Shown: positions 1 through 9,281 of the stretch, in pieces
How positions within the stretch are numbered: position 1 is the first letter of the stretch
Layout: each line of letters starts with the position of its first letter
NCBI GenBank assembly: GCA_942492995.1
Contig: OW818653.1
Location: forward strand, 1,800,001-1,832,000
Direction: 5' to 3'
Length of the DNA stretch: 32,000 bases
Source: an uncultured Erysipelotrichaceae bacterium
GTDB lineage: Bacteria > Bacillota_I > Bacilli_A > Erysipelotrichales > Erysipelotrichaceae
Made by a program: the position numbers and the translations under genes
Notes under the pieces: model-generated
What the model was told of the DNA's origin: nothing
What the model saw: only the letters and a program-made list of their open reading frames with translations
The model's database searches: none

Positions 1-154
1 ATGGGGATATGATTACTATGGAGATAGTAGAACCGTTGATTCACATATGACTCGATTAAGAAGTAAACTCGATCATTATAAACATCCATTATGGGATTTA
101 AAGACAGTATGGGGTGTTGGATATAAGTTTGAGACAACAGAGGAAAAAGTATGA
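1..154 (+). CDS. OmpR/PhoB-family response regulator, C-terminal fragment (5' end lies outside the window)
   Basis: Frame 2 reads WGYDYYGDSRTVDSHMTRLRSKLDHYKHPLWDLKTVWGVGYKFETTEEKV*, the typical winged-helix tail of OmpR-type regulators. Its TGA stop overlaps the kinase ATG (ATGA at 151-154). Confidence 0.85.
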   Translation, partial: WGYDYYGDSRTVDSHMTRLRSKLDHYKHPLWDLKTVWGVGYKFETTEEKV

Positions 155-1581
155 AACAAGGAATAACACGTAAGCTTATTCTTTATTTCATTTTGGTTAT
201 TATATCGTTTGCGATCGTTATAGGATTTGTGTTTGGATTCAATGTACGTAAACAGACAAGAGATACCATCGAAATTAATCTATTAAGTCAATCGAATCTA
301 ATCGCGAATGAAATCGCAGAGAATCGAAGTTTTGATATAGAACAGAGTCAAATTGATTATTATCTATCATCCGTAGATCTCGAAGATTTACAAGTATGGA
401 TCGTAAGTAATGATGGTGAAATAACGGCAGTAACAGAAACGCATATGGGAATGGGAATGATGCGTAATTATTTTAATCTCAATAAATCAACACAAGATTT
501 ATTATCTAAAGTACTTAAAGGTGAACAACTTGTAAGTGATCGTATAAAGGGTGTATTCAATGTCGATACTGTAACAGTAGGAACACCGATTAAGATTAAT
601 AATCAGGTTATTGGCGCATTGTTTATCTCTGCGTCTATATCATCGATTAATGCGTTAAGTACAACCAGTATTAGAACCATGTTAATTGCGTTAAGTATCG
701 GGATACTCATCGCAATTGCGCTAGGATACTTCTTATCCCTTAACTTTGTTAAACCATTAATGCGAGCGAATCAAGCTGTAAATACATTAGCCTTAGGCCA
801 ATACGATATCCATATCGATGACTCAAGAGCTGATGAAATAGGATTACTCGCCCGTAATATTAATAGTCTAGCCAAACGATTAGATGATGCGTCACGTCAA
901 AGTGAGAACTTAGAAAAGATGCGTCAAAACTTTATCGCAGACATTACCCATGAACTAAGAACACCTGTCACTATCATTCGTGGATTAGCTGAAGGTATAA
1001 AAGATAAAGTCTACGATATCGAAGATAGTCCGATGATAAGTACACAGATTATCCATGAAACAGTCGGTATGCAACGGTTAATCCAAGACTTATTAGACCT
1101 ATCCAAACTCGAAGATCCAGACTTTAAACTTGATATGCGACCTCTTGAACTCCATGAAGTACTAAGTGATGTGAGTCGTAGTGCACAAGCTCTACTAGAA
1201 GCCAAGAAACAGCGATTAGTCGTAGAACTCGAAGAAGGTGAATGGAATATCATCGGTGACCATCAACGCTTAAAACAGATGTTTATCGCAGTCATAGACA
1301 ACGCTTCTAAATTCTCGAAGAATAGCACAGACATCAAAGTAAGTGCTAAACGAGAAGATAAATCGATCATTGTAAGAGTTAAAGACAATGGATCAGGAAT
1401 AAGCATTAACCAACAAAAAGAACTCTTCAAACGATACAAGAAAGATAGTCAAAACAATCCAAATGGAAATGGATTAGGACTACTCATCGTATCGCGTATT
1501 GCGCAAAGTCATAAGATTGATCTCAGTGTAAATAGTATTGAGAATCAAGGAACAGAAATAGTATTTAGTATAAATTTATAA
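151..1581 (+). CDS. Sensor histidine kinase (2 TM segments, HAMP, HisKA, HATPase_c)
   Basis: H-box FIADITHELRTPVT, N-box DNASKFS, G1 DNGSGI and G2 GNGLGL. An N-terminal TM helix and a second TM (IRTMLIALSIGILIAIALGYFL) precede a HAMP-like segment. The gene is translationally coupled to the upstream regulator. Confidence 0.92.
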   Translation: MKQGITRKLILYFILVIISFAIVIGFVFGFNVRKQTRDTIEINLLSQSNLIANEIAENRSFDIEQSQIDYYLSSVDLEDLQVWIVSNDGEITAVTETHMGMGMMRNYFNLNKSTQDLLSKVLKGEQLVSDRIKGVFNVDTVTVGTPIKINNQVIGALFISASISSINALSTTSIRTMLIALSIGILIAIALGYFLSLNFVKPLMRANQAVNTLALGQYDIHIDDSRADEIGLLARNINSLAKRLDDASRQSENLEKMRQNFIADITHELRTPVTIIRGLAEGIKDKVYDIEDSPMISTQIIHETVGMQRLIQDLLDLSKLEDPDFKLDMRPLELHEVLSDVSRSAQALLEAKKQRLVVELEEGEWNIIGDHQRLKQMFIAVIDNASKFSKNSTDIKVSAKREDKSIIVRVKDNGSGISINQQKELFKRYKKDSQNNPNGNGLGLLIVSRIAQSHKIDLSVNSIENQGTEIVFSINL

Positions 1582-1612
1582 GAATCTCATCGTAAGGATG
1601 AGATTCTTTAAT
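1580..1612 (+). terminator. Rho-independent terminator of the two-component operon
   Basis: Perfect 12-bp stem aagaatctcatc / gatgagattctt with loop gtaag, followed by a T-rich tail. It begins at the kinase stop codon. Confidence 0.8.
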
Positions 1613-1831
1613 TTGAATACGTACTTTAGAGTATCTAGATTAAAGGAATATAAGCAATATATTAAGAATAAATTCAGAACTCACAATTAGAATATATTGA
1701 ACGTGAAGAATGGTTTTTTCGATTGTGGATTTTGTAGGAATTCTGAGTGAAAGTGACAATTCTGAATAATACTGGAGTGTACTTATAACAAGATTAAAAT
1801 CAGATGGAAGCCAAATGGCAACAAAATGTAG

Positions 1832-2139
1832 CCAGTTGAAATTACAAATGCTTGGACAGGACTAAGTACAAAGGAATATAAGAATCTCAAAAGTTTATAA
1901 AAAGAAAATTTAAGAGATAATATGACAAATCTTGAATTAGTATTAAATATGTTAGCAGAAGCATCAACATCTGAAATTTCTAAGGAATTGAAACCTGAAA
2001 CTTTTGAGGATAATAAAGTAGTTGTCGAAAGGGTGGATTTGTAGCAAATGCAGCTAAAGTACAACTTGAAGAAACTACTGGGAAAAAGGTTATAACTGCG
2101 AAGAATAACAAGATAGTAAATAGTATTGAGAAGAAATAA
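1832..2139 (+). pseudogene. Decayed C-terminal remnant of a DinD/phage-antirepressor-like gene (in-frame stops plus a frameshift)
   Basis: Reading across the defects gives PVEITNAWTGLSTKEYKNLKSL*KENLRDNMTNLELVLNMLAEASTSEISKELKPETFEDNKVVVER / (frameshift near 2028) / KGGFVANAAKVQLEETTGKKVITAKNNKIVNSIEKK*. This resembles the conserved C-terminal tail I recall from DinD/antirepressor-type proteins. TAG at 1829-1831 and TAA at 1898-1900 interrupt the frame. The family assignment is from memory only. Confidence 0.45.
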
Positions 2140-2165
2140 TATTTAAGTTTATAGGTAGAACTGTA

Positions 2166-2768
2166 TTAATAAGACTTGAATGATTTAATCTCTCTCTTTA
2201 AGTAATTTACTAATAACTGTAGATTTCTTGTTTTATAATAAGGAGCTAATTCTAAGATAAGTTCTAAATCCAGCTCAAAGAGTTGATTCTCATCAATCCT
2301 CAAAAAATCAAACAATAAAGATTTTAGTTCAGATTGATTTGAACATGGTTCGTAAGTATATAAAATATCACATAAAGCCTTTTCAGCTTTCGCTAAAACA
2401 AAACTATAACTATTCTGTTGATATAGAATTGTCGCAAGACCAAATACTTCTCTCGGTACATCTCTATACGTAAAGTGACCAAATTCGTTATCATATATTT
2501 TACGACGTCGTTTGTTAAACGTTGCGGAAGTGAAATGATAAACAGCTTCAGGAATTAAACCATAATAAGAAAGCGCAAACTCAAAAGACAAGTAAGATGG
2601 ACCATAAATAATAGATGCTAAGTAATGACCAGGAGTTTTAGGGTCTGTTTCATACAAACCTTTAACAATTGGTATAATCTCTTTCTTTTTCACCATATTA
2701 GAAATTTTTGCCATTGGATTACTATATTGAGTTAGTTGGTCAAGTAAAACAGCAGTTGTATATATCAT
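2166..2768 (-). CDS. AbiEi-family (type IV toxin-antitoxin) antitoxin-like transcriptional regulator; no AbiEii partner present
   Basis: The 200-aa product has an N-terminal wHTH ending in IVKGLYE, then ASIIYGPSYLSFEFALSYYGLIPEAVY...FTYRDVP, the pattern typical of AbiEi antitoxins. A GGAG Shine-Dalgarno sequence lies 7 nt upstream of the ATG. Confidence 0.75.
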   Translation of the reverse strand: MIYTTAVLLDQLTQYSNPMAKISNMVKKKEIIPIVKGLYETDPKTPGHYLASIIYGPSYLSFEFALSYYGLIPEAVYHFTSATFNKRRRKIYDNEFGHFTYRDVPREVFGLATILYQQNSYSFVLAKAEKALCDILYTYEPCSNQSELKSLLFDFLRIDENQLFELDLELILELAPYYKTRNLQLLVNYLKREIKSFKSY

Positions 2769-2814
2769 ATTTTCTCCAGATAATCCAATAATAATGTATT
2801 ATCTGGAGAAAATA
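2768..2814. promoter_or_regulatory. Perfect 17-bp inverted repeat (13-bp spacer) covering the SD and start codon of the AbiEi gene
   Basis: tattttctccagataat (2768-2784) is the exact reverse complement of attatctggagaaaata (2798-2814). On the minus-strand mRNA the 3' arm contains GGAG and the A of the AUG. Confidence 0.7.
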
Positions 2815-3027
2815 AATACTATTTTAACTAGAATCTCTAAATATTTATATGTAATAAACGTATTTTGTCCTTATAAGATTATAAACTTTATAACTATTGA
2901 ACAAATATTAGGACTTTTTAAATTGATGTCAGTATATATAATTGAAACTTACAACAGTTACATTTAACAGACGGTGTCTATTAAATTAAGTTGAACTAAA
3001 TGTAAGTCAAGTAAAAATGGAAATAAC

Positions 3028-3056
3028 TTGACATTCTAGATTAGCGATACTATATT
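3028..3056 (+). promoter_or_regulatory. Candidate sigma-A promoter for the 3077-5272 operon
   Basis: TTGACA (3028-3033), a 17-nt spacer, then TATATT (3051-3056), 20 nt upstream of the ATG at 3077. The short inverted repeat gtcaagt/acttgac (3005-3011 / 3026-3032) overlaps the -35 element. Confidence 0.5.
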
Positions 3057-3076
3057 GAAATTATTACAGGTAAACA

Positions 3077-3787
3077 ATGAATTACACAAAAATAGTAAAA
3101 GAAGAAATACATAAATACGAAGAAACTGAATTGATTAATTCTAATCAGTTATTTTTAAATAAATTATCTAGTATACCAGAGTTTACGTATTACAAGATTC
3201 TAGAAAGAATGGTTAAAAACAACGAATTAGCAAGAATTTCAAAAGGAATATATGTAATTCCAAAACAAACTGAGTTTGGATTGATATCAAATAGTGAAGA
3301 AAAAATATTGAATTTATATTTAGAAAATAATAATGGATTATATAAAGGACTTTATTTGTTTAATCATCTCGGTTTAACAACGCAATTACCCAAAATAATT
3401 GAAATATATTCTTCGAATCTTGATCAAGAAACAAAGAGAATTAATAATTTTAGAATCCAAAAAATTAATATGAAATTAAACAAAGAAAATGTACACTATA
3501 TCGAATTACTTGAAGTGTTAGAGAATTACTACAAAATTGAAGATATAAATCATAATAAGTTTATTTCCTATCTAAGGAAAAGTGTTAATTCCTATAATGA
3601 CATTAATTTAAAGTATGTATTAAAAAATAAAAAGTATAAGAAATCTACAATTGCGTTTCTTGAAACGATTTTGAATAAATATGGAATAAAGAATACTTTA
3701 AATATGTATCTAAATCGAACATCAAAATATAAAGTTCCAGATTTAGAATTTACTTCTGAGTACGATAATTATAAAGAAATATGTTAG
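3077..3787 (+). CDS. AbiEi/DUF6088-like wHTH protein (antitoxin-type)
   Basis: The 236-aa product reads YYKILERMVKNNELARISKGIYVIPKQTEFG...YLFNHLGLTTQLPKIIEIYSS. This is a wHTH ending in the (K/R)G(I/V)Y motif followed by a 'LGLTTQ(V/L)P' segment, as in AbiEi/DUF6088 proteins. It lies 15 nt upstream of the next gene. Confidence 0.6.
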   Translation: MNYTKIVKEEIHKYEETELINSNQLFLNKLSSIPEFTYYKILERMVKNNELARISKGIYVIPKQTEFGLISNSEEKILNLYLENNNGLYKGLYLFNHLGLTTQLPKIIEIYSSNLDQETKRINNFRIQKINMKLNKENVHYIELLEVLENYYKIEDINHNKFISYLRKSVNSYNDINLKYVLKNKKYKKSTIAFLETILNKYGIKNTLNMYLNRTSKYKVPDLEFTSEYDNYKEIC

Positions 3788-3802
3788 TAAAAGGAAAAAA
3801 AT

Positions 3803-5272
3803 ATGGAAAACAGCAAAATAATTAAAAGTTATCAAACAGACAAAGAATCACAATATTTTGATCGGAAAAGCGCGAGAATAGATCCGAAAGAAATCGCAAA
3901 ACTTATTTCTGCTTACGCAAATGCAGATGGGGGAACGATCGTATTAGGGATTGAAGATAATGGTGTAATAACTGGATTTAAAACGACTAATTCAAAAGCA
4001 ATTGATAGTTTTAAACGCACATCTTTTACATTTCTCAATAGTCATCCTCAAACTGAATTCGAAGAAATAGATTGCATTAATATAAACAATGAATCAGATA
4101 AATTATTAATAATAAAAGTAGAATGTGAAACAAATAATATCATTCAAATGACGAATGATGATGTCTATCTTAGAGTCGGCGATCAATCTAAAAAGTTAAC
4201 TCATTTAGACATTGAACGTTTAAAATATGATAAAGGAGCAAGTCATTTTGAAGAAATAATCAATCCTCGAGGGTCCATAAATGATTTAAATATGGGCCTA
4301 GTTGAAGAGTATTGTAAACTTTTAAAATTCGATAAAGAATTCTCTAATCCAATTAGTGTTCTAGAGTCTAGACATTTATTGGTAAATTCAAAACCAACAA
4401 ATGCTTGTTTATTGTTATTCGCAAAAGATTTAACAAAATTTTGCCCAAACTATGGGATTAGATTCATAAAATATGAAGGTCTGTTTGCGGAAACTGGAGA
4501 ACGTTTAAATATCATAAGAGACGAATTATTTGAAGGACCATTACCTATTCTGATTGATAAATGTATAAATTTTGTTCAGTCACAGTTACGGTTTTTTAAT
4601 TCTCTTGATATCAAAACAAATACATTTTTAACGATTCCAGAATATCCTGAAGCTGCTTGGGTTGAAGGAATTATTAATGCTGTTACACATCGCGACTACT
4701 CTATTCTAGGGGATCAAATTAAGATTTTTATGTTTGATGATAGGATTGAAATTAGAAGTCCGGGTAAATTACCCAATATTGTGAACCTTGAAAACATGAA
4801 GAATACGAGATATTCGCGTAATCCACGTGTTGCTCGAGTCCTTAATGATTTTGGTAAAGTAAAAGAGTTAAATGAAGGAGTTAAGAGAATGTATGAAGAA
4901 ATGCATCGTTTCTCTTTAAATGAACCAAAATATTCTGAACCTTATAATAATTCTGTTTTGCTTATATTGGAGAATAACATCATTATACGAAAATTGAGAA
5001 AAGCAGATGTGATAATGAAAATTATTGAAGAATACCAAGGAATTGTTACAGAAGAAGAGAAGCTTATATTAATTGCATTAACAAATAAAATGAAAATAAC
5101 AATTAAGGAAAGTTGTGAGTTAATTAATAGAAGTCCGAAATATACTAGAAGTCTACTGATGAATTTAGTTAATTTAGAGATTCTAAATTGGAATAGGACT
5201 TCTCAGAAAGATCCAAAGCAATACTATACTCTAAAATTAATCTCTGAGAAGTCCTCGAGTAGAACCGAGTAG
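3803..5272 (+). CDS. AlbA_2 (Schlafen-type) domain / HATPase_c_4-like / C-terminal wHTH protein (often mis-annotated as 'RecG-like')
   Basis: The N-terminus reads ESQYFDRKSARI...AYANADGGTIVLGIEDNGVITGF (AlbA_2). The middle reads EGIINAVTHRDYSILGDQIKIFMFDDRIEIRSPGKLP...YSRNPRVARVLNDFGKVKELNEGVKRM (HATPase_c_4-like). The C-terminus is a wHTH (ITIKESCELINRSPKYTRSLLMNLVNLEIL). An AAAGGA SD is present. The last 5 codons and the TAG stop lie inside the 10-bp repeat. Confidence 0.8.
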   Translation: MENSKIIKSYQTDKESQYFDRKSARIDPKEIAKLISAYANADGGTIVLGIEDNGVITGFKTTNSKAIDSFKRTSFTFLNSHPQTEFEEIDCININNESDKLLIIKVECETNNIIQMTNDDVYLRVGDQSKKLTHLDIERLKYDKGASHFEEIINPRGSINDLNMGLVEEYCKLLKFDKEFSNPISVLESRHLLVNSKPTNACLLLFAKDLTKFCPNYGIRFIKYEGLFAETGERLNIIRDELFEGPLPILIDKCINFVQSQLRFFNSLDIKTNTFLTIPEYPEAAWVEGIINAVTHRDYSILGDQIKIFMFDDRIEIRSPGKLPNIVNLENMKNTRYSRNPRVARVLNDFGKVKELNEGVKRMYEEMHRFSLNEPKYSEPYNNSVLLILENNIIIRKLRKADVIMKIIEEYQGIVTEEEKLILIALTNKMKITIKESCELINRSPKYTRSLLMNLVNLEILNWNRTSQKDPKQYYTLKLISEKSSSRTE

Positions 5273-5560
5273 AACCGAGTAGAACCGAGTAGAACCGAGT
5301 AGAACCGAGTAGAACCGAGTAGAACCGAGTAGAACCGAGTAGAACCGAGTAGAACCGAGTAGAACCGAGTAGAACCGAGTAGAACCGAGTAGAACCGAGT
5401 AGAACCGAGTAGAACCGAGTAGAACCGAGTAGAACCGAGTAGAACCGAGTAGAACCGAGTAGAACCGAGTAGAACCGAGTAGAACCGAGTAGAACCGAGT
5501 AGAACCGAGTAGAACCGAGTAGAACCGAGTAGAACCGAGTAGAACCGAGTAGAACCGAGT
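5256..5560. repeat. Perfect tandem decanucleotide repeat, (agaaccgagt) x 30 plus a 5-nt partial unit
   Basis: Counted directly: 30 identical 10-bp units span 5261-5560, preceded by cgagt (5256-5260), with no variant unit. TAG recurs every 10 nt on the plus strand, so all three plus frames are closed. The minus strand has no stop in any frame. Confidence 0.98.
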
Positions 5561-5590
5561 ATAGTAAGTCATAGTAAGTCATTGTAAATT
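5561..5590. repeat. Degenerate flank of the array: (atagtaagtc) x 2, then attgtaaatt
   Basis: Two identical 10-bp units that differ from the main unit are followed by a 7/10-matching third unit. Their reverse complements supply the ATGs of the spurious minus-strand ORFs. Confidence 0.85.
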
Positions 5591-5652
5591 TAATAGCAGT
5601 AAATTGTACTGAATGAGAGAACTCGATTTGAAATTATAATAATACTTAATCA

Positions 5653-5690
5653 AAAAGGACTTTATATCACTCTATAAAATCCTTTTCATT
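5653..5690. terminator. Stem-loop terminator between the island operon and the reductase-gene remnant
   Basis: aaaaggactttata / tataaaatcctttt forms a 14-bp stem with 1 mismatch and loop tcactc. T-rich sequence follows on the plus strand. Confidence 0.55.
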
Positions 5691-5713
5691 ATTCTGATTA
5701 CTAATTCTAAATT

Positions 5714-5835
5714 ACTTTGAAAGCGAGAATCCACCAGTCCATTCAAAAAGCTCACGGATAGCTAATGTAATCTGTAAGAAATCATTGCAGATGTTAATGT
5801 ACTCTTCAAGTCAGAATCATTTATCGCAAATAGCG
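5714..5835 (-). pseudogene. Truncated, internally deleted copy of the 3' end of the reductase gene found intact at 14705-15265
   Basis: 5714-5784 aligns to 14705-14774 at about 90% identity (for example gagaatccaccagtccat and ctcacggatagctaatgtaatctgtaagaaa are identical). About 67 nt corresponding to 14775-14840 are missing. 5785-5835 then aligns to about 14841-14895. The copy translates to ...FLQITLAIRELFEWTGGFSLSK*, versus FLQITLAIRELIGWTGGFSLSK* in the intact gene. Confidence 0.8.
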
Positions 5836-6788
5836 TTCAGATTATCTAAGATAAACGAAGTAATCGGAGTATTAGAATACTTAAACGCTAGAATTACACT
5901 TCCAATATCTGGGCTACTAAATGGATCAATTAGTTGAATATTATGTTCTTTTAGTTTTCTTTGAAGGGGTAATGTAACAAACTCTTTACTTTTGAACACA
6001 CCACCTTGATACGAAGCATACACTAAACCATTAAACTGAAGTTTATTTTTTAATGCGATGATAATTCGACTAAGTTCATAAGCTGCTTCTTCAAATATTC
6101 GTAAAGCAGAAGAATCTCCTAATTCCGCCAAGATACTAACATCAAGAGCAAGACTAGCAACTTTCGTTCGATCAAAATCCCACTCAACAATAACCATTTT
6201 TAAGATATCGGAATCATTGATAAAATTATATTTTTCTTTAATATGCGAATATAGTTTTGTTTGATTCGATCTACCATCACTTTGCATGGTGAATTCTTGT
6301 ATCAATTTACAACCAATCCAAAAAGCACTACCTTCATCGCCACCAAAAGCATGATGCCATCCACCACATCGTAATGAATTACCATAATCATCTATCCCAA
6401 GTCCAATAGATCCAGTGCCAGCTATTAATACAATTCCAGGTTTATTAATAAGTGCTCCAGCATACGCATTCTCAACATCATTACCAATTGAAGTTTCAAT
6501 AGGGCTGAAAATATCACATACTGTATGCTTAATTAATTCATTGTCTTCCTCAATGTCACCATAGCCTGCAACTGACGCAAATATATGATGAATATTCTCT
6601 CTTTTTAAACCATTTTGATTCAAACACGCATCAAGACCATTTTGCATAACGCGTTTCAAACCATCTAATCCAACTTGTAAATAATGACTAGCGGGTTGAA
6701 TGTTTTCCGCTACTTTTATACCATTCTCATCGACTAATAAAAACTTGGTTTTAGTACCACCGCTATCAATTCCTAAGAACAATCTCAT
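5817..6788 (-). CDS. BadF/BadG/BcrA/BcrD-type ATPase; probable N-acetylglucosamine-type sugar kinase
   Basis: MRLFLGIDSGGTKTKFLLVD phosphate-1 motif, LIAGTGSIG phosphate-2 motif, and GGWHHAFGGDEGSAFWIG. Its start abuts the LacI stop codon. Confidence 0.75.
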   Translation of the reverse strand: MRLFLGIDSGGTKTKFLLVDENGIKVAENIQPASHYLQVGLDGLKRVMQNGLDACLNQNGLKRENIHHIFASVAGYGDIEEDNELIKHTVCDIFSPIETSIGNDVENAYAGALINKPGIVLIAGTGSIGLGIDDYGNSLRCGGWHHAFGGDEGSAFWIGCKLIQEFTMQSDGRSNQTKLYSHIKEKYNFINDSDILKMVIVEWDFDRTKVASLALDVSILAELGDSSALRIFEEAAYELSRIIIALKNKLQFNGLVYASYQGGVFKSKEFVTLPLQRKLKEHNIQLIDPFSSPDIGSVILAFKYSNTPITSFILDNLNAICDK

Positions 6789-7790
6789 TTAGATACCCCT
6801 CGTAGAGCTACGTACAACTAATTTAGTTGGTAAGAAAATACAATAAATATTTTTATCTTTATTCAAAATCATTTCCAAGATACGTTTAACAGCTGTCTTT
6901 CCAATCTCATCACTCGGTACATCAATTGTAGTAAGTGGGGGGATTAGATAAGACGAGAACTTTAGATTATTAAACCCTACTACCGCAATATCCTCAGGAC
7001 ATCTCAAATTATTTCGATGTATTTGTCCAATAACGATTTGCGCTAAAGAATCACTCCCCGCGAATATAACATCAGGTCGATTAGGAGATAGAATCAACTC
7101 ATTCGTTTGTTCAGCACATTTCTCAAGATCCCAAAAGCAATCTTTAATAATCGACGCATCATATTCGATGTTTTCTCTACGAAGACATTCACGATACATG
7201 ATTAAACGTTTTGTATCAAGCATGTCAATGTTTGGAGCACCTCCACCGATATACGCTATCCGTCTGTAATTTTGATTGAGTAAATGACGCATAATCTGCT
7301 TAGTAGAATCAAAATGATCAAAACCAACCGAATTGAACATATTTTGATAATTATCAATCGTAAGAATATGTTTAACATGAAGTTTTAGATCTTCAACAAT
7401 ATGCATTGGTAACATTTCCATTATAATAATTCCATCCAACTTCATTTCATGTAATTCAGCTAATTTCGAAGGTTTTTCTAATTCATCATAGTTAATTAAA
7501 TAGGACAAGCTACAATTGTTTTTCTTAATTTCATTTTCAATCGCAGAAACCATATTCATAAAGTAAGGATCAGAATACTTAACAGCAGTCATGGCCATAA
7601 TACAACCAATCTTTATTTGTTTCTCATTCTTGTTTTTCTTAGTAATCGAATAGTTTAAATCCTTTACCGCTTTAAAAATTGTTTCTTTTGTACTATCAGG
7701 AACCTTAAAGCTCTCATCATTCGACAGTACTCTAGAAACGGTTGTGATTGAAGTACCGGCTTTTTTTGCGACATCACGAATATTTGACAT
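6789..7790 (-). CDS. LacI-family transcriptional regulator
   Basis: MSNIRDVAKKAGTSITTVSRVLSN HTH followed by a periplasmic-binding-protein-like sugar-binding core. I place the start at the ATG at 7790 (GAGGA SD 9 nt upstream), not at the 24-codon-longer ORF start at 7862. Confidence 0.9.
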   Translation of the reverse strand: MSNIRDVAKKAGTSITTVSRVLSNDESFKVPDSTKETIFKAVKDLNYSITKKNKNEKQIKIGCIMAMTAVKYSDPYFMNMVSAIENEIKKNNCSLSYLINYDELEKPSKLAELHEMKLDGIIIMEMLPMHIVEDLKLHVKHILTIDNYQNMFNSVGFDHFDSTKQIMRHLLNQNYRRIAYIGGGAPNIDMLDTKRLIMYRECLRRENIEYDASIIKDCFWDLEKCAEQTNELILSPNRPDVIFAGSDSLAQIVIGQIHRNNLRCPEDIAVVGFNNLKFSSYLIPPLTTIDVPSDEIGKTAVKRILEMILNKDKNIYCIFLPTKLVVRSSTRGI

Positions 7791-7809
7791 AGTTTGTATC
7801 CTCAGTATA

Positions 7810-7822
7810 TGTTTACTAAACA
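7810..7822. promoter_or_regulatory. 13-bp palindrome TGTTTACTAAACA (operator candidate, copy 1)
   Basis: A perfect palindrome about a central base, 20 nt upstream of the LacI start. An identical palindrome is repeated at 7929-7941. Confidence 0.5.
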
Positions 7823-7863
7823 AATTATAGTATAAATTTATCAAATAATCAATAAAAATCAAA

Positions 7864-7877
7864 TGAAAGCCTTTACA
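7864..7877. promoter_or_regulatory. cre-like / LacI-type operator TGAAAGCCTTTACA
   Basis: Matches the CcpA cre pattern TGWNANCGNTNWCA at 13 of 14 positions (C instead of G at the centre) and is nearly palindromic. A weaker second site, TGAACGCGTAAACA, lies at 7908-7921. Confidence 0.4.
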
Positions 7878-7928
7878 TCCTATTTTTACTGTTCTACAAT
7901 TGATTTATGAACGCGTAAACATTAAAAG

Positions 7929-7941
7929 TGTTTAGTAAACA
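7929..7941. promoter_or_regulatory. 13-bp palindrome TGTTTAGTAAACA (operator candidate, copy 2)
   Basis: Same half-sites as 7810-7822. It directly abuts the AAGAGG SD of the GH4 gene. Confidence 0.5.
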
Positions 7942-7952
7942 AGAGGTTAACT

Positions 7953-9281
7953 ATGAGAAAGAAGTTTGTATTTATCGGAGCTGGTTCATTAGATTTCACG
8001 AGATACTTAGTACGAGATATTTTGACATTTGAGAAATTTAATGACTGTGAAATTAGTTTAGTTGATATTAATGAGAAACGATTAGCGTATGCTTACCAAG
8101 GAATTATGAAAATAATCGAAAAAGGTAATTATAAAGCAACTGTATCACTTACAACGAACAGAAGAGAAGCTTTAGTTGGGGCAGATGGTGTTGTTATAAC
8201 GATTCTACAAGGTGGTGTTGAAGTTTGGAGACATGATATTGAGATCCCTAAAAAATACGGAGTAGATATAAATGTTGGCGATACAAGAGGACCATCCGGT
8301 ATATTTAGATTTTTAAGAACAGCACCTGTCATGTTAGACATAATTAGAGATGTGGAAGAATTATGCCCACACGCAATTGTTCTAAATTACTCTAATCCAA
8401 TGGCGATGTTAGTAAGCTTTATGCAAAAACAAACAAAAGTGAATGTTACTGGTTTGTGCCATAGTGTACAAGGTACTGCAGAAATGTTAGCTGGATGGAT
8501 TGGTGCAGATATCAAAGATATTAAATATGTTTGTGCTGGGATCAATCACCAAGCATTCTATACAGAATATAAGTGGAAAGGTGAAGACGCAATTCCATTA
8601 TTAAAAGAAGCTATTTTAAGAGAAGAAGTCGCAAATGAAGAACCAGTTCGAATTGAGATGTTTAGACATTTAGGATATTTCCCTACAGAGTCGAGTGGTC
8701 ACAATTCTGAATACAATCAATGGTTTAGAAAACGTCCTGATTTAATCGAAAAATATTGTACGTTTGGTACAGGTTGGAATCCAGGCGAATATGCCTATAT
8801 TCTTAACGAATATCTTGAAAGAGAATCAACTTGGGAAAAAGAATATAAAGAATGGTTAGAAAACGGTGATATCGAACTCGAACGTGGTGAAGAATACGCT
8901 TCAAATATCTTCAACGCAATGCTTGGGGATAACACTCCATTCTTCTTTAATGGAAACTTACAAAATAAAGGTTATATTTCGAATGTTAGAGAAAATGCCT
9001 GTGTAGAAGTTCCTGTTGTAGCAACTGAATTGGGAATCCATTCAATCATGCCTGTTACATTGCCTGAACATTTAGCACTTATGGTAGATCATTCTGCTCG
9101 AATCGAAGAACTAGCAGTACAAGCCGCAATAACAGGCGATCCACTAAAAGTTTTCCATGCCATCTTATTTGATCCATTAACATCAAGTGTTCTAAGTATG
9201 CAAGAAATAAAAGATATGGTTCAGGAGATGCTGAACAAAAATGCAAAATATTTGAGTTATTTTAAATCATTAGAAATTTAG
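7953..9281 (+). CDS. Glycoside hydrolase family 4 (NAD+/Mn2+-dependent) alpha-glycosidase, MelA/AglA/LplD type
   Basis: FVFIGAGSLDFTR Rossmann start, NYSNPMAMLV, and the GLCHSVQGTAEML signature with the catalytic Cys. Confidence 0.88.
   Translation: MRKKFVFIGAGSLDFTRYLVRDILTFEKFNDCEISLVDINEKRLAYAYQGIMKIIEKGNYKATVSLTTNRREALVGADGVVITILQGGVEVWRHDIEIPKKYGVDINVGDTRGPSGIFRFLRTAPVMLDIIRDVEELCPHAIVLNYSNPMAMLVSFMQKQTKVNVTGLCHSVQGTAEMLAGWIGADIKDIKYVCAGINHQAFYTEYKWKGEDAIPLLKEAILREEVANEEPVRIEMFRHLGYFPTESSGHNSEYNQWFRKRPDLIEKYCTFGTGWNPGEYAYILNEYLERESTWEKEYKEWLENGDIELERGEEYASNIFNAMLGDNTPFFFNGNLQNKGYISNVRENACVEVPVVATELGIHSIMPVTLPEHLALMVDHSARIEELAVQAAITGDPLKVFHAILFDPLTSSVLSMQEIKDMVQEMLNKNAKYLSYFKSLEI

Follow-up and report, generated by a model that had tools for sequence, protein, structure and literature searches.

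A Schlafen-type gene in the place of the AbiEii toxin gene: a probable chimeric operon in a strain-variable islet of an Erysipelotrichaceae chromosome

We have analysed a stretch of 32,000 nucleotides (nt) from the chromosome of an uncultured Erysipelotrichaceae bacterium (assembly GCA_942492995.1, contig OW818653.1, positions 1,800,001 to 1,832,000; hereafter the window), in which a gene for an antitoxin-type protein of the AbiEi family (gene 1, positions 3077 to 3787 of the window, plus strand, 236 amino acids (aa)) is followed by a gene for a Schlafen-type protein (gene 2, 3803 to 5272, plus strand, 489 aa). The explanation that in our view accounts best for the data, and which we consider probable, is that the two genes form a chimeric operon, created by recombination within a defence islet that differs from strain to strain, and that gene 2 encodes a stand-alone Schlafen effector. 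The two co-oriented open reading frames (ORFs) are separated by 15 nt that contain an AAAGGA ribosome-binding site, and they lie in AT-rich surroundings, with a GC content of 0.246–0.251 across positions 2501–4000 as compared to 0.31–0.39 in most of the window. Both the arrangement and the base composition are as described in the original prediction, which had been made from the letters of the sequence.

The evidence for recombination comes from related loci that carry other versions of the same chromosomal slot, which is bordered on the left by the genes of a two-component system, encoding a response regulator and a histidine kinase (HK, 476 aa), and on the right by genes for a BadF-type sugar kinase and a LacI protein. 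In allele A, seen in loci L084 and L092–L097, the HK gene is followed by genes for AbiEi (231 aa) and AbiEii (310 aa) and then by the BadF gene; the AbiEi of L092–L097 (P0158) is found on at least 24 contigs. In allele B (L091 and L178), the HK gene is followed after 172 bp by a version of gene 2 with 96% aa identity, which has its own upstream region and no AbiEi gene. The window is a mosaic of these two alleles. Positions 2898–3759, comprising the promoter and abiEi, correspond to L084 175–1037 (96.4% identity), positions 3838–5345 match allele B at 96.7%, and allele A resumes at 5636–5993 (L084 1963–2322, 91%), with 5653–8548 matching L093 at 94%. The replaced stretch of L084 spans 1038–1962 and the abiEii ORF of that locus 1034–1966; gene 2, together with the 10-bp repeat array at its end, has replaced the abiEii reading frame almost exactly, from start to stop codon. 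Identity decays in the last ~25 nt before 3759, such that the left breakpoint lies within the final 9–17 codons of gene 1, and it is to these codons that the differences between gene 1 and allele A are confined, the gene being otherwise intact. The idea that the toxin slot of an AbiE locus is occupied here by a different protein, as had been proposed for this DNA, is thus correct in the literal sense of an exchanged abiEii ORF (by comparison with L084 and L092–L097), but it does not extend to a conserved system, as discussed below.

The seam between the two parts (3760–3837, plus strand) runs from the 3′ end of gene 1 through the ribosome-binding site to codon 12 of gene 2; homology to L084 stops at 3759, and homology to L091 begins at 3838. 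These 78 bp resemble neither of the parental alleles, which suggests a third donor sequence. The encoded N-terminus of gene 2, MENSKIIKSYQTD, is unlike that of its 96% identical orthologue, VKNIDLVDSYKLE.

Upstream of gene 1, a sigma-70-type promoter of the abiE operon, TTGACA-17-TATATT, is found at 3028–3056 on the plus strand with 11 of 12 positions, as originally predicted. It is the best promoter-like site within 1500–5900, promoter-like sites overall being no more numerous than in shuffles in this AT-rich DNA, and around it the window shares 96% identity with allele A (L084). The -35 box is overlapped by the right arm of an operator-like inverted repeat, GTCAAGT-N13-ACTTGAC (3006–3032, plus strand), which occurs a single time in the window, with a chance expectation of 0. 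The full palindrome with arms of 9 nt, ATGTCAAGT-N13-ACTTGACAT, stands 5′ of abiEi in 20 loci, including those of relatives with only 40–43% identity. AbiEi proteins repress their own operon via inverted repeats in the promoter (reviewed in PMC13064643). Because the gap between gene 1 and gene 2 is only 15 nt long and contains no terminator-like site, this promoter very probably drives gene 2 as well, and its repression by AbiEi is a plausible regulatory link between the two genes.

By its matches to known families, gene 1 is a genuine AbiEi that has lost its cognate AbiEii toxin, and the gene for this antitoxin and presumed auto-repressor is intact. The protein matches Pfam DUF6088 with 28.6 bits (cut-off 25) and AbiEi_4 with an E-value of 6e-4, and the PADLOC AbiEi model PDLC02251 with 5e-73 over residues 1–224, which is end to end for a model of length 230; the AbiEi/DUF6088 assignment of the original prediction is therefore secure. 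NCBIfam gave weak AbiEi matches and nothing further, and a search of the PDB by sequence with the AbiEi family profile returned no useful match. Gene 1 is 94–95% identical in aa sequence to P0121, retains the conserved residues of its family and corresponds to the antitoxin component of an AbiE system, with an N-terminal winged helix-turn-helix (wHTH) and a C-terminal antitoxin domain. The locus further resembles AbiE in that an operator-like inverted repeat covers the -35 box, an arrangement seen in autoregulated abiE operons, and in that sister strains have a complete AbiEi–AbiEii pair at this place. In contrast to AbiE, there is no AbiEii (DUF1814/PF08843 nucleotidyltransferase) in the 32 kb, and gene 2, in which Pfam finds no AbiEii domain, is of an unrelated family. 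Since AbiEii was tested for and is absent, the locus in the window is not an AbiE system.

Gene 2 is likewise intact. Pfam identifies an SLFN_AlbA_2 domain at residues 15–132 (8e-18) and a HATPase_c_4 domain at residues 303–382 (4e-21), i.e., PF04326 followed by PF13749 in a single protein, which is the combination that defines a ‘Schlatpase’. The C-terminal wHTH is below threshold in Pfam; an AlphaFold model built with 27 homologues (mean predicted local distance difference test score of 83) has three helices at residues 417–457 followed by a beta hairpin at 461–477, and Foldseek matches this C-terminus to MarR-type and other winged-helix proteins, which together point to a short C-terminal winged HTH. 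The three domains had all been named in the original prediction. The nuclease motif Ex4(E/D)xK (as defined in PMC13056530) reads E15-SQYF-D20-R-K22 in gene 2, assigned from sequence register and not from structural alignment to SLFN11; among the 27 homologues, E15 and K22 do not vary, and conservation of D20 is at least 90%. The Glu/Asn pair of the GHKL ATPase, E288 and N292, four residues apart, is invariant in the family alignment and is likened, via spacing and motif and not by direct alignment, to E314/N318 of the Argonaute protein RzAgo. The ratio of non-synonymous to synonymous substitution rates (dN/dS) of gene 2 against L091 is 0.06 (38.5 synonymous and 10.5 non-synonymous changes), which argues for strong purifying selection.

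As compared to 26 homologues, gene 2 is full length, and it exceeds them by about 8 residues; we had considered a C-terminal truncation by the repeat array, and it is ruled out by these observations. In locus L178 (1527–2820, a Logan contig), the orthologue of gene 2 appears in pieces of 116, 229 and 70 aa, which reflects either a pseudogene or an assembly error.

This domain architecture places gene 2 in the Schlafen-GHKL-HTH class, described in two papers of 2026, to which more prokaryotic Schlafens belong than to any other. Fusions of SLFN and GHKL, the Schlatpases, account for 58.6% of 103,533 prokaryotic Schlafens and are mostly small, with or without a C-terminal HTH (bioRxiv 10.64898/2026.05.29.728809). 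In a second survey, 34% of pSlfn proteins combine the Schlafen domain with a histidine-kinase-like (GHKL) ATPase and a further 19.2% also carry an HTH, and some of these nucleases, which share the Ex4(E/D)xK motif, defend through tRNA cleavage (PMC13056530). Gene 2 resembles the HisKinase-HTH or ‘Schlatpase’-HTH members in having SLFN_AlbA_2, PF13749 and a C-terminal HTH with both motifs, and its family resembles them in consisting of single genes with defence-island or prophage neighbours. It is unlike them in that an AbiEi gene and an abiE promoter precede it, and in that it ends in a 10-bp tandem-repeat array.

Among proteins of known structure or function, the one that offers a mechanistic template is the SLFN-pAgo of Runella zeae (RzAgo), in which ATP-driven tetramerisation assembles a tRNase whose cleavage of tRNA aborts infection (bioRxiv 10.64898/2026.05.29.728809). 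The likeness would thus lie in ATP-driven oligomerisation leading to tRNase activity; unlike RzAgo, gene 2 has no Argonaute core, and hence no guide-directed sensing. The PADLOC pAgo model PDLC02394, which we take to be of the Schlafen-Argonaute type, matches gene 2 with 4.6e-43 at model positions 54–457 of 1121, the N-terminal Schlafen-GHKL part. The sole solved structure that matches the whole model of gene 2 is that of the uncharacterised DIP2311 from Corynebacterium diphtheriae (PDB 3lmm; Foldseek E 1e-22), which at the sequence level is found by phmmer on the GHKL region (4.7e-10) and has 18% identity. The N-domain also resembles mammalian SLFN5, SLFN11, SLFN12, SLFN13 and SLFN14 (Foldseek probability 1.0, E 4e-5 to 1e-3) and shares with them the acidic-acidic-lysine motif, with the difference that the ATPase of gene 2 is of the GHKL type and that of mammalian Schlafens a superfamily 1 (SF1) helicase. 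Homology to mammalian Schlafens is limited to the C-lobe (RzAgo preprint, bioRxiv 10.64898/2026.05.29.728809).

These assignments bear on the fallback that the original prediction had kept in reserve, a plain pair of regulators, which we take here as ordinary transcription regulators with housekeeping duties. Both proteins do have winged-helix domains, and database labels of gene 2 relatives often read as regulators or ‘RecG-like’. However, the slot varies between strains and is rich in AT, the match of gene 1 to AbiEi models reaches 5e-73, the nuclease motif of Schlafens and the ATPase residues of GHKL proteins are preserved in gene 2, and the relatives of gene 2 are found in restriction-modification, prophage and other defence contexts without a conserved core context. 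We therefore regard this possibility as very remote: gene 1 is better described as an orphaned antitoxin and repressor, and gene 2 belongs to a described antiphage class of Schlafens.

Is the pairing of AbiEi and Schlafen found elsewhere? Many of the metagenome loci that we compared are near-identical copies from different gut samples, such that independent observations are fewer than the counts. The family of gene 1 is small (34 clusters). Its closest relatives with context, P0121 (95% identity), P0158 (same 90%-identity cluster), P0122 (81%) and P0123 (74%), are each followed by a canonical AbiEii (PF08843), and the intact AbiEii copies (310 aa) behind these relatives overlap the end of abiEi by 14–17 nt. 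Of 80 metagenome loci for the family, 72 have a downstream ORF, which encodes AbiEii in 62, an aldehyde dehydrogenase in six (solo AbiEi) and a short, probably spurious product in four; a Schlafen gene follows in none of the 72. In the sole near-case, L148, a sequence with distant similarity to HATPase_c_4 lies 1.8 kb 5′ of the AbiE locus, which was taken as co-location.

The family of gene 2, with more than 2,700 matches, is very large. We inspected neighbourhoods of 4–5 kb in 80 species-representative loci (37–51% identity) and 22 viral contigs, and neither AbiEi nor AbiEii was found near gene 2 relatives by tblastn (genome loci only), by a hidden Markov model of the gene 1 family (35 sequences, the window's gene 1 and 34 homologues) or by phmmer with the orphan AbiEi described below and AbiEii; two PADLOC scans gave at most one weak AbiEi match among 122 small neighbours. 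The neighbours are heterogeneous and include type I restriction-modification subunits, mad, DolA, Rmr and coupling proteins of type IV secretion systems, and in other cases pantothenate kinase or GH94 enzymes. P0002 (58%; L089 2252–4697, and L090), the distinct relative nearest to gene 2, begins 17 nt behind a CI-type repressor gene (HTH_3 and Peptidase_S24) with a divergent small Cro-like HTH gene, which together form a prophage lysogeny module. This position is typical of a superinfection-defence gene in a prophage.

By this comparison, AbiEi and Schlafen are paired in a single mosaic of known parts in this gut strain and do not constitute a conserved new system. Furthermore, a 96% identical version of gene 2 occupies this slot in L091 and L178 with no AbiEi, and relatives are found without one in about 100 further loci, which argues that gene 2 does not need AbiEi. 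The original prediction of an AbiEi–Schlafen toxin-antitoxin or defence module is not borne out, since the adjacency was seen in 0 of 72 loci for gene 1, and in 0 of 80 genome and 0 of 22 viral loci for gene 2. That prediction had itself been made to depend on conservation of the pairing beyond this genome, which we did not find, and on matches of gene 1 to AbiEi/DUF6088 models, which we did.

We thus favour the following scenario for the chimeric operon. Gene 1 and gene 2 would be co-transcribed from the abiE promoter, and AbiEi would repress the Schlafen gene along with itself. By analogy to its relatives, the Schlafen protein would act alone as an antiphage effector, an autonomous ATP-gated tRNase that cleaves tRNA and so halts translation in infected cells, and its C-terminal wHTH, at a guess, probably senses nucleic acid or regulates the protein. 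AbiEi would not be a required antitoxin for the Schlafen protein in this scenario.

Several points weigh against this. In E. coli, HisKinase-fused pSlfn constructs failed to protect against the phages of the panel (PMC13056530), and the small Schlafen-GHKL-HTH class is as yet without a published phage-defence phenotype, such that a defence role for gene 2 is proposed by analogy. Co-transcription and repression by AbiEi are read from the sequence only, and there is one T>A change in the left operator arm of the window. Also, the ORF-precise exchange and the foreign 78-bp junction could mean that the pair was assembled elsewhere as a unit, in unsampled genomes, and the near-identity of many metagenome loci makes the counts overstate independence.

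A closely related possibility is that the locus is a functional, partner-swapped AbiE-like module, with the Schlafen protein as toxic effector and AbiEi as both repressor and antitoxin, and with phage infection releasing the Schlafen protein. It is consistent with the ORF-for-ORF replacement, which retains the operon geometry with its 15-nt gap and ribosome-binding site, with the intact state and non-neutral evolution of both genes, and with the retained operator palindrome. AbiEii-type toxins are thought to act on tRNA (PMC13064643), and characterised Schlafens cleave tRNA. On the other hand, the pairing is seen in this genome only, two samples have the 96% identical Schlafen in this slot with no AbiEi beside it, and the roughly 100 loci mentioned show relatives standing alone. 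Furthermore, AbiEi-type antitoxins are reported to neutralise specifically their cognate nucleotidyltransferase, and we know of no mechanism by which such an antitoxin would neutralise an RNase. All in all, a module of this kind seems unlikely to us.

In this context, a protein from L202–L204, P0141 (342 aa, 42% identity to gene 1, on at least 5 contigs), provides a parallel for effector exchange. As in the window, the position of AbiEii is occupied by something else at the same C-terminal junction, in this case a toxin-antitoxin effector pair; unlike in the window, there is no Schlafen gene, and the AbiEi is fused in frame to an MNT nucleotidyltransferase (PF01909/PF18765), with a HEPN gene downstream, overlapping by 14 nt. 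Effectors have thus been exchanged at least twice behind the family of gene 1, which also speaks for the partner-swapped module, and because the fusion in P0141 occurs at this same junction, the 3′ end of abiEi may be a recurrent exchange point for effectors. One could go further and view AbiEi of the gene 1 family as a portable auto-repressor ‘head’, to which recombination at the 3′ end couples AbiEii, MNT-HEPN or a Schlafen tRNase, and which here would hold down expression of the Schlafen gene up to the moment when AbiEi is removed by infection or stress. The locus would then be a working chimeric defence operon in which a bacterial Schlafen is controlled in a new way; this generalisation is speculative, and we give it only a slim chance of being right.

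With or without it, the slot is a clean natural case of the rebuilding of a defence locus, in which a toxin ORF was replaced by an unrelated effector while the antitoxin and repressor gene and its operator were kept, and the replacing effector is one that acts on tRNA in characterised relatives. A 96% identical gene exists in nature both with and without AbiEi, and the locus lends itself to studies of the bacterial Schlafen class that is the most abundant and as yet uncharacterised. Should AbiEi control the Schlafen gene, as the chimeric operon implies, the Schlafen immune family would gain a new regulatory input; otherwise, the locus would be an ordinary mosaic of known parts.

The remainder of the islet shows that this was not its only loss of a toxin. 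A second AbiEi gene (2166–2768, minus strand, 200 aa; PADLOC PDLC02230, 1e-63) is orphaned. Its homologue P0162 in L201, which falls into the same 90%-identity cluster, is followed by an intact AbiEii of 290 aa; L201 4586–5685 is absent from the window, and the breakpoint (window ~2184–2188) lies at most 2 nt from the abiEii ATG. This is the second toxin loss at an abiEi/abiEii boundary within 2 kb, and no AbiEii remnant was detected anywhere in the 32 kb by tblastn of two AbiEii proteins (E > 4). The toxin is thus gone, and the antitoxin retained, in each of the two AbiE systems of the islet. A palindrome at 2768–2814 (arms 2768–2790 and 2792–2814, 23 nt each, 1 nt apart, 91% complementary) begins at the start codon of the orphan abiEi and is a candidate operator, with a sequence unlike that upstream of gene 1.

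Next to the orphan gene lies the decayed 3′ part of a Bro-N-type prophage gene with a fragment of a 66-aa ORF (1694–2165, plus strand), and both the remnant and the second AbiEi gene are part of an insertion relative to allele A (1582–2897). Window positions 1694–1800 and 1833–2188 match L201 6461–6354 and 6042–5686 at 91–94%. The intact gene of L201 matches Pfam Bro-N, and the copy in the window (about 1694–2140) is broken across three frames by frameshifts and stops. An orphan AbiEi gene and a decayed phage-type gene had both been noted nearby in the original prediction.

Such remnants raise the question whether the islet as a whole is decaying, in which case both AbiEi genes would be functionless relics and the adjacency to the Schlafen gene would have no regulatory meaning, whether or not gene 2 works. 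The disappearance of both abiEii genes without a trace in 32 kb, the pseudogenised Bro-N gene, the apparent splitting of gene 2 in L178 and the six solo AbiEi loci with an adjoining aldehyde dehydrogenase elsewhere in the family would all fit. The dN/dS of gene 1 against L084 is 0.28 (from 21 substitutions only), as compared to 0.11–0.13 between AbiE-bearing alleles, which is at most a hint of relaxed constraint. However, both AbiEi ORFs are full length and have kept the conserved residues of the family, gene 2 has a dN/dS of 0.06, and with a 15-nt gap lacking a terminator-like site, read-through from the abiE promoter into gene 2 is hard to avoid. We thus consider decay of this kind improbable as an account of the locus, and prefer that of the chimeric operon.

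The array in which gene 2 ends consists of 30.6 copies of the 10-bp unit CGAGTAGAAC (5256–5561, Tandem Repeats Finder, 100% matches) and encodes the final 5 codons and the stop codon of the gene. About 9 copies are present at the same place in L091 (about 6690–6782); an assembly artefact is ruled out by this independent metagenome contig. Copy number is polymorphic and cannot alter the protein. The repeat had no match in viral contigs. Two minus-strand ORFs of 137 and 111 aa (5169–5582), with the decapeptide YSVLLGSTRF, are artefacts of the stop-free strand of the repeat.

The flanks of the slot are conserved. On the left, the HK gene (151–1581, plus strand, 476 aa) is 87–92% identical in nt sequence to those of L084, L091, L092 and L201, and its orthologues carry the Pfam domains HAMP, HisKA and HATPase_c. 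On the right (5636–6788, minus strand), a shared terminator region is joined by the gene for the BadF/BcrAD-type kinase (5817–6788), an orthologue of which matches Pfam BcrAD_BadFG. The window contains no Rfam family. Beyond the islet, from 6789 on, sugar-metabolism genes come first, with a LacI-type regulator and components of an ABC sugar transporter (translations covered the first 12.4 kb). Finally, fragments of the HK gene are found just 3′ of AbiEii in L201 (5511–5695), L085 (2380–2533), L086 (2393–2489) and L001 (7647–7784), where they match window positions 1430–1615 or about 1043–1196, and these may have been left behind by repeated insertion or recombination events at the HK gene.

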